DNA of 62,592 bases, the filler included, from Dugesia japonica (lineage: Eukaryota), in assembly GCA_001938525.1 (NCBI GenBank). It is 6 parts of 6 records of this genome, joined end to end, with 100 filler letters (N's around TTAATTAATTAA, not from the genome) between each part and the next. Parts side by side here need not be neighbours in the genome. Positions count along the whole stretch, not along the records: positions 9,540 to 21,271 come from MQRL01606331.1; 5 more parts are not named here. One strand, 5' to 3'. Shown one piece after another: positions 13,729 through 14,439 of the stretch. The notes beneath the pieces were generated by a model. That model was given only the letters and a program-made list of their open reading frames with translations. It had not been told where the DNA came from and searched no databases. Both the position numbers and the translations under genes were made by a program. Each line of letters opens with the position of its first letter. Within the stretch, counting starts at the first letter, position 1.

Positions 13729-14439
13729 ATGCATATAATTGTAGATAATGGAATTCGATCTGGAACTATCAATAAACGAGGCAAGATATTGGATATTGAG
13801 TTATACTGTATGAACCAAGGTCGGGAAGAAGTCAAGCAAATTCCAATAGTGCAAAACGTAATGCACTACCGTAATAGTTTTGGGGCACCAGAAAATTTCA
13901 TAGCGGGTATTAAAATTCTAAAATGTACAACCTGCAAAAGAGAAACAAAGATACTGAATGGCGTGGGGAGAATACCAAATAGTCTGTTTCATCAACTGAA
14001 ATGCTCACGATTGAACCAAAATTCAGGAGGAAACTTATCTATATCATCATGTAGAGTCGAATGGAATGTATCCAACAACAGAATGGAAATGGCAATCGAA
14101 TTACAGACCAACAGACTAACCAAAATGCTAGGGTTAAAAAATTAAAACATCAACCAATTAATAAAACAAACAGTCGCAAGAAAAGGGACTGAACTAATCA
14201 CACCATATGAATTATATCAACAATCACTCAGATCAGCGAATCAACAAGTAAAGTATGAGCAAGAATGGGTATTGATGGATAATGATTGTGTCATATGCCT
14301 GGAAGAAACAATCAATGTTATATTTCTTCCATGCGGGCATTTTAAAACATGCTATAATTGAGAGCTAAATTTAAACGAATGCTCTATGTGCCAAAAATTA
14401 ATTGAGCGAAGGGTGTTGGAAATAAAATTTCATGGGTAA
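13729..14439 (+). pseudogene. IAP-like gene (degenerate BIR-like Zn site, UBA-like, C3HC4 RING), two in-frame stops
   Basis: Same frame past TAA at 14143: KMLGLKN*NINQLIKQTVARKGTELITPYELY (resembles the IAP UBA), then CVICLEETINVIFLPCGHFKTCYN*ELNLNECSMC (IAP/MDM2-type RING, TGA at a Cys position). N-terminal CTTC-x18-H-x3-C. Confidence 0.75.

Follow-up and report, generated by a model that had tools for sequence, protein, structure and literature searches.

In all likelihood, the inhibitor-of-apoptosis (IAP)-type gene described here is a fixed and separate passenger of a Burro-type element of Dugesia japonica, and its intact copies would be ubiquitin ligases that dampen caspase-driven cell death. 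The copy from which the analysis started lies on the plus strand in the window, i.e., the whole stretch of 62,592 nucleotides that was analyzed, and it is a pseudogene; this copy itself does nothing. An anti-apoptotic IAP cargo has already been published for the planarian element Burro1, and the present case is a further example of it. The published case is thereby extended to another element family, with some added detail: the domain layout has four parts, the gene keeps a fixed place ahead of a coiled-coil open reading frame (ORF) and the polypurine tract (PPT), and more than 100 copies show purifying selection.

The features of the window copy and its immediate surroundings, with positions counted along the window, are as follows.

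13139-13191, no strand: (AAT)n tract, seen in the sequence behind another LTR-like terminus, which ends at 13138; it would be the left insertion flank
13192-13241, no strand: assembly gap of 50 N, seen in the sequence
13245-13550, plus strand: accessory ORF upstream of the IAP gene, 3' end only; it matched no Pfam family at E<0.05
13748-14439, plus strand: broken IAP-type cargo gene (family ORF of 398 amino acids), delimited by comparison with family copies
13912-14004, plus strand: C-terminal half of a degenerate second BIR, C-x2-C-x18-H-x3-C, assigned by HHalign, AlphaFold2 (AF2) and ligand conservation
14077-14223, plus strand: UBA-like three-helix segment, degenerate (LKL for MGF), assigned by HHalign and interrupted by the stop at 14143
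14278-14409, plus strand: C3HC4 RING of the IAP type (Pfam PF13920, E 1.1e-10), interrupted by the stop at 14359
14439-14444, plus strand: AATAAA, a possible polyadenylation signal of a separate transcript, judged by its recurrence among copies
14535-15406, plus strand: broken coiled-coil/proline-rich ORF, about 380 amino acids elsewhere; no Pfam family at E<0.04
15825-15835, plus strand: polypurine-tract-like sequence before the 3' LTR; besides the window, 17 further element loci show this junction
15841-19189, plus strand: 3' LTR of about 3.35 kb, TGTTGGGG...CCCCAACA, with inverted termini and AAT repeats after it

The segment at 13729-14439 (+) translates as 236 codons, interrupted by stops at codon 139 (14143) and codon 211 (14359), in agreement with the preliminary description, which had read through two stops over about 236 codons. 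The CTTC...H...C pattern noted there is present as C66-x2-C69...H88...C92, and the C-terminal C3HC4 RING was recovered by Pfam zf-C3HC4_3 with 41.6 bits against a cut-off of 27. The best PDB matches of this RING were the RINGs of cIAP1, cIAP2 and XIAP. When the stops of the window copy were read as X, the RING alone was matched, with no Pfam BIR at E≤1 and no Pfam UBA. The CTTC...H...C pattern is the second half of a degenerate second BIR, because a deletion of about 0.5 kb at about 13901-13911 removed the canonical BIR together with half of the next domain. The BIR is missing in only 2 of the 62 testable copies, and the end points differ between these two.

The ATG at 13729 was tried as the true start and rejected on the family alignment, in which the start is the ATG at 13748, in another frame; the two frames of the window copy are joined by a small frameshifting deletion near 13786-13791. 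The gene is intronless as described, the related copies having 398 contiguous codons. The AATAAA reported after the ORF overlaps its terminal stop, and the PPT placed 1.4 kb downstream corresponds to the purine tract at about 15825-15835, followed by the LTR start at 15841. The two stops, the frameshift and the 0.5-kb deletion make this copy a pseudogene, and the downstream ORF is broken too; the copy is therefore as dead as had been claimed, with more lesions than were first described. The window lacks the 5' LTR, gag, env and pol of this copy, which are either hidden in the 50-N gap or lost. For the 3' LTR, many genomic matches begin at 15840-15842, and its end matches the sequence upstream of the internal region in loci L021 and L026.

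Several other LTR-like sequences were observed in the window. The 2.7-kb LTR-like unit at 4638-7322 (+) has similar termini, is 78% alike to the end of the LTR at 15841-19189 and is probably the solo LTR of a related family, and further LTR-like ends are located at 2267, 11728 and 13138. The element appears to lie in an (AAT)n tract (13139-13191 and from 19190 onward) behind another LTR end, which suggests that insertion at AAT microsatellites happened repeatedly. The 3' LTR contains an open frame of 142 codons at 18523-18951 (+) that matches no Pfam family and has relatives at about 6712-7082 and in loci L132 and L029. Relatives at other loci were also seen for the frames at 6243-6653 and 1499-1843, and these LTRs may encode small coiled-coil proteins.

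The remainder of the window contains decayed mobile elements and gene fragments. Inspection by eye placed gag/pol-like remnants of an unrelated LTR element at about 2280-4400 (-); a DDE_3 transposase remnant was seen at 35061-35576 and a decayed gypsy gag/RT at 54188-56580. A lipase exon is located at 9007-9438 and a DEAD/DEAH helicase exon at 47379-47795, and exons that belong to a long host gene of coiled-coil-like type, with a frame of 375 codons among them, lie in the region 21910-26299 (+). For the VCP/p97 sequence at 57937-59815, flatworm proteins are the best full-length matches among the named ones; a plant protein is first by score, with 80% coverage at 83% identity, and three further proteins outrank the named flatworm ones.

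The intact form of the cargo was established from other copies. A search of the same genome with the X-read-through protein gave at least 151 matches, with 150 of the 1062 candidates scored, and many of the relatives have intronless open frames of 385-399 codons. The domain order of the intact family ORF is a BIR, a degenerate second BIR, UBA-like helices and a RING. The canonical BIR was detected in all three intact copies tested (Pfam E 1e-13 to 3e-10), and in four natural copies tested both it and the RING were above the Pfam cut-offs. The first BIR covers residues 70-150 approximately and has the pattern C-x2-C-x16-H-x6-C, with its ligands kept in 81/85, 83/85, 86/88 and 87/87 copies. The degenerate second BIR, at residues 190-258 approximately, has a shifted ligand spacing and ligands kept in 71/80 to 82/84 copies. 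When it was compared with 18 canonical BIRs, HHalign returned a probability of 87% (E 3.8e-6). The eight ligands of the RING are kept in 61/67 to 67/70 copies. No CARD match was found in the cargo family.

The first AF2 model, built from 19 close rows, had a mean pLDDT of 33, and the second, built from 12 rows that included distant homologues, had a mean pLDDT of 52 with only the two BIRs resolved. In the second model the first BIR reached a pLDDT of 72-92 and superposed on XIAP BIR2 over 90 residues (Z 13.6, rmsd 2.0). The degenerate second BIR had a pLDDT of 65-81 and a BIR-like order of helices and strands. Fold searches with the second model were filled by matches to the first BIR and bear on that domain alone.

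The segment between the second BIR and the RING, at residues 280-330 approximately, is likely a degenerate UBA, as judged from profile comparison. The preliminary description had compared it with the UBA of cIAP and XIAP. This resemblance was moderately supported: against 106 IAP UBA-like segments, HHalign gave a probability of 78% (E 1.8e-5) over 32 gap-free columns, whereas none of 14 control windows that overlapped the segment little or not at all exceeded 1.7%. On the other side, the probability fell to 2.5% with a thinner profile of 5 rows. The isolated second BIR and middle segments gave nothing relevant in Pfam, UBA included, at E≤10, and the profile of the middle segment matched no PDB sequence at E≤10. 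The pLDDT of the segment was 42-55, and the glycine of the MGF motif is replaced by Lys in 62/73 copies.

A RING ligase of a non-IAP kind was considered and ruled out. The best PDB matches were the cIAP/XIAP RINGs, BIR and RING occur together in family copies, and a protein language-model atlas returned only BIR+RING clusters for the cargo. The HMM searches that had been proposed for BIR, UBA and RING thus gave a RING in the window copy and a canonical BIR in intact copies.

The IAP ORF is a fixed module of the element and is located near its 3' end. The coiled-coil ORF follows directly after the IAP gene in 46/46 testable copies (104 distinct copies in the loci examined), and an integrase is present within 6 kb upstream in 9/9. 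The accessory ORF was found upstream in 39/41 testable copies, and the PPT-proximal motif was found downstream in 13 of the 17 copies with enough flank. The location in the 3' internal region of the retroelement, as first proposed for the window copy, was thus found in every testable copy. An AATAAA lies within 40 nt of the ORF end in 46/56 copies compared with 13.9 expected from shuffles, a test in which the copies are related and the stop codon was not fixed. With an AATAAA density of 3.1 per kb in the window, a single instance is weak evidence.

The window copy is broken and borders an assembly gap, and most copies carry stops, as they might if the ORF were a local insertion of a host retrocopy, a functionless passive passenger, or the product of misassembly. 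Such an explanation is extremely improbable. It is refuted by the same position in 46/46 and 9/9 testable copies and by a dN/dS of 0.2 between subfamilies, together with the conserved zinc ligands.

Some frames next to the IAP gene deserve mention. Three accessory frames between the integrase and the IAP gene (L117:682-2291, L034:3065-5343 and L118:41-979) contain hydrophobic membrane-like segments and a PPSY/PPNY motif and had no Pfam match at E<0.02; they possibly encode a second surface or budding protein. At L118:1874-3814, a 647-codon frame joins two BIRs, without a RING, to the downstream coiled-coil ORF.

The IAP ORF was under purifying selection while the element replicated, and single copies decay neutrally after insertion. 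In pairwise comparisons among 99 distinct copies, the 1790 diverged pairs had a dN/dS of 0.20 and the 93 closer pairs one of 0.30; the pairs are non-independent, dS values above 1 approach saturation, and similarity was used to collect the copies, which favors conserved ones. By domain, the dN/dS was lowest for the RING (0.10), followed by the first BIR (0.15), the second BIR (0.24) and the middle segment (0.26). The few closest pairs of copies had a dN/dS of 0.5-1.4. The RNase H (RH) and integrase (IN) had a dN/dS of 0.05-0.06, indicating that the IAP ORF is under weaker selection than these domains, and the value for the downstream coiled-coil ORF was 0.15-0.30. Variants common to at least four copies favored the third codon position (318/237/569 at the first, second and third positions), whereas singletons did not (246/267/167). 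This is the pattern expected of a gene that is kept during replication and decays after insertion. Among the near-full-length copies, 10/33 were stop-free.

In gene order, the element matches the giant Ty3/gypsy elements of Burro type. Its order, put together from several loci, is gag, a fusion-type env, protease (PR), a dUTPase-like region, reverse transcriptase (RT), RH, IN, accessory ORFs and IAP. The Ty3/gypsy order PR-RT-RH-IN was obtained by Pfam in loci L021/L022 and L038. A Monjiviricetes-type fusion protein (PF24664, E 1e-77) is located upstream of PR in L021, and in L039 the fusion protein and the protease share one 846-amino-acid frame. L039 and L040 each have a zf-CCHC match above the cut-off; the one in L039 lies about 6 kb before env, and ORF1 is in pieces in these copies. 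Between PR and RT, the dUTPase-like match (PF00692, E 5e-4) had 20.2 bits, below the cut-off of 22. Upstream of env, SUMO-like (PF11976, E 0.0025) and Bcl-2 (PF00452, E 0.0046) matches, both below the cut-off, occur in the published order.

A single contig (L039 and L036) holds the CCHC, the weak SUMO-like and Bcl-2 matches, the fusion-protease frame, RT/RH/IN and then the BIR. One contig of 22.5 kb (L036, L039 and L122) is element sequence from the PPT to the contig end; for Burro, the internal region is up to 25 kb and the total length above 30 kb. Among the contigs examined, none held the whole element. No primer-binding site was located by motif search, and no MATH or ankyrin match was found in 56 + 22 frames, which were the longer open frames of broken copies only.

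The published layout of Burro is gag-env-pol with SUMO-like, BCL2-like, dUTPase-like and BIR motifs (PMC6431247, section 7), and MATH is placed outside ORF1 in the Burro-like element of another species (PMC6431247). Burro1 is described as active, PIWI-controlled and longer than 30 kb (PMC8532177, PMC11410931). Its BIR+RING protein, 'B-IAP', is reported to protect stem cells from caspase-mediated apoptosis (Lee et al. 2026, cited in PMC13465017), and beside this account an expansion is placed in land and freshwater planarians (PMC13465017). The anti-apoptotic cargo of a planarian Burro element that the preliminary description had mentioned agrees with the BIR motif in PMC6431247 and with B-IAP as presented in PMC13465017.

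For the function of the cargo, the following course is proposed. A spliced IAP mRNA would have been captured long ago by reverse transcription. The ORF may be expressed as its own transcript, as suggested by its own ATG after an AT-rich spacer and by the AATAAA near its stop. The BIR would bind caspases or IAP antagonists, and the RING would ubiquitinate those that are bound. A longer survival of cells with an active element might then favor the spread of the element. BIR binding and RING ubiquitination are the general IAP mechanism as outlined in PMC3972657, and the anti-apoptotic step is put forward by analogy with the IAP family in general and with the report on Burro1 B-IAP.

Raw RNA runs with the same species label had 74, 28 and 17 reads, of 13.6, 11.6 and 10.5 million, on L028, none of them 99% alike; these counts concern a locus other than the window copy, lack a host-gene control and are no evidence for or against expression. 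One contig set of uncertain type covered all 30 bins of L028.

The peptide-binding groove of the first BIR appears to be partly canonical, judging from aligned residues. Groove positions were counted from the conserved Trp via the alignment of ML-IAP, with the groove residues as given in PMC6360406. The equivalents of L307, W310 and D/E314 are kept in 81/86, 80/86 and 77/86 copies, respectively, and that of W323 in 54/87. Position 309 is mostly Lys (70/86), position 319 is mostly Ala or Val (72/88), and position 306 is also altered. In most copies, position 319 is A/V/D and position 323 is W/C/S.

The altered groove, which has no acidic or polar residues at the equivalents of 309 and 319, and the degenerate second BIR would also suit a ubiquitin ligase or signaling adaptor with a non-apoptotic role, such as the degradation of restriction or silencing factors or immune signaling in the manner of type I BIRs, which signal without caspase binding according to PMC6360406 and PMC3972657. 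The RING is moreover the most constrained part of the cargo, and the element also carries the weak SUMO-like and Bcl-2-like matches. The type I signature, described as K/R at 319 and L/V at 323 (PMC6360406), is not the rule in the cargo, however, and the counterpart in Burro1 is reported to be anti-apoptotic, as cited in PMC13465017. A non-apoptotic role is accordingly regarded as improbable, and a ligase that dampens caspase-driven death is the preferred reading.

An origin of the cargo from the host is plausible. The BIR tree (92 BIRs) named no donor and was poorly supported; it was built by a quick method from 92 rows and 75 columns without viral IAP or RING rows, and 46 of its 89 inner branches were open. 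In this tree the first BIR of the element groups with P0045/P0069 (SH-aLRT 90, unstarred). The two non-element BIR loci examined in the genome, L059 and L072, are only about 30% alike to the cargo and have no RING in the frames read. The BIR exon of L059 presumably belongs to a BIRC6/Bruce-like gene. L072:1303-1926 contains a single-copy BIR gene; its C-terminal part is helical, and this frame has no RING. The search for host BIRs was swamped by element copies, with 84/736 and 150/360 candidates scored.

An IAP from another virus or animal might instead have been brought into flatworms by the element; this concerns the origin only and is compatible with the mechanism proposed above. RING-IAPs are reported as lost in the platyhelminths surveyed by PMC13159474, whose main text contains neither the word planarian nor the word Schmidtea. 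The element holds an RNA-virus-type fusion protein, the two-BIR-plus-RING layout matches viral IAPs by fold, and the BIR loci L059 and L072, with no RING in the frames read, are only distantly alike to the cargo. Against this, no relative of the cargo was found in the viral contigs and metagenome contigs scanned, the BIR tree is poorly supported, and a host RING-IAP may have escaped the swamped host search. A foreign origin is regarded as rather unlikely.

Full-length matches to the cargo, at 26-27% identity, were obtained with P0045 and P0069, two proteins from ENA assemblies; they share even the N-terminal segment and the degenerate second BIR. P0045, P0160 and P0069 were all noted as distant full-length homologues of the cargo at this level of identity and with the same degenerate second BIR, and their longest contigs have 15,990, 6,828 and 1,864 bases, respectively. 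We tentatively raise the possibility, held to be less likely than not, that flatworms have kept an ancient BIR-BIR-UBA-RING lineage solely as cargo of Burro-type elements, which would be the only source of RING-IAP activity in a host lineage reported to have lost such genes, with P0045/P0069 being the same cargo in far more distant hosts or elements. If it is true that flatworms have no RING-IAP, the element would supply a lost host function. If the distant homologues bear this out, the cargo would be older and more widespread than planarians.

The element resembles Burro1/GYPSM1 of Schmidtea mediterranea in being a giant gypsy-like LTR element of a flatworm, with a CCHC Gag, an env in frame between gag and protease, a weak dUTPase-like match between PR and RT, SUMO-like and Bcl-2-like motifs that are likewise weak but follow the published order, and a BIR+RING cargo. 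Unlike in Burro1, neither MATH nor ankyrin was detected in the frames scanned. The cargo consists of a BIR, a degenerate BIR, a UBA-like segment and a RING, whereas only BIR and RING are named for B-IAP in the citing account, and the window copy is dead. Of the Burro-like elements of Dugesia tigrina and D. japonica described in PMC6431247, one is intact without MATH in ORF1 and the other is decaying with stops and frameshifts, and such decaying fragments are in the state of the window copy. The description of the Dugesia elements in PMC6431247 gives no account of an IAP ORF, its copy number or its selection.

Compared with the cellular RING-IAPs (cIAP1/2, XIAP and DIAP1/2), the cargo shares the BIR fold, the C-terminal C3HC4 RING and a UBA-like segment between them. 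It differs in having one canonical and one degenerate BIR and no CARD match, in the changes at groove positions 309 and 319, in a UBA without the MGF glycine, and in being intronless and present in more than 100 element copies. The viral IAPs (baculovirus IAP3, nudivirus, nimavirus and mollusc herpesvirus) are like the cargo in being captured and in their compact two-BIR-plus-RING layout. They were the top BFVD fold matches of the cargo (E 7.6e-9 and up), at 12-28% identity. Unlike these viral proteins, which belong to large DNA viruses, the cargo is carried by a retroelement.
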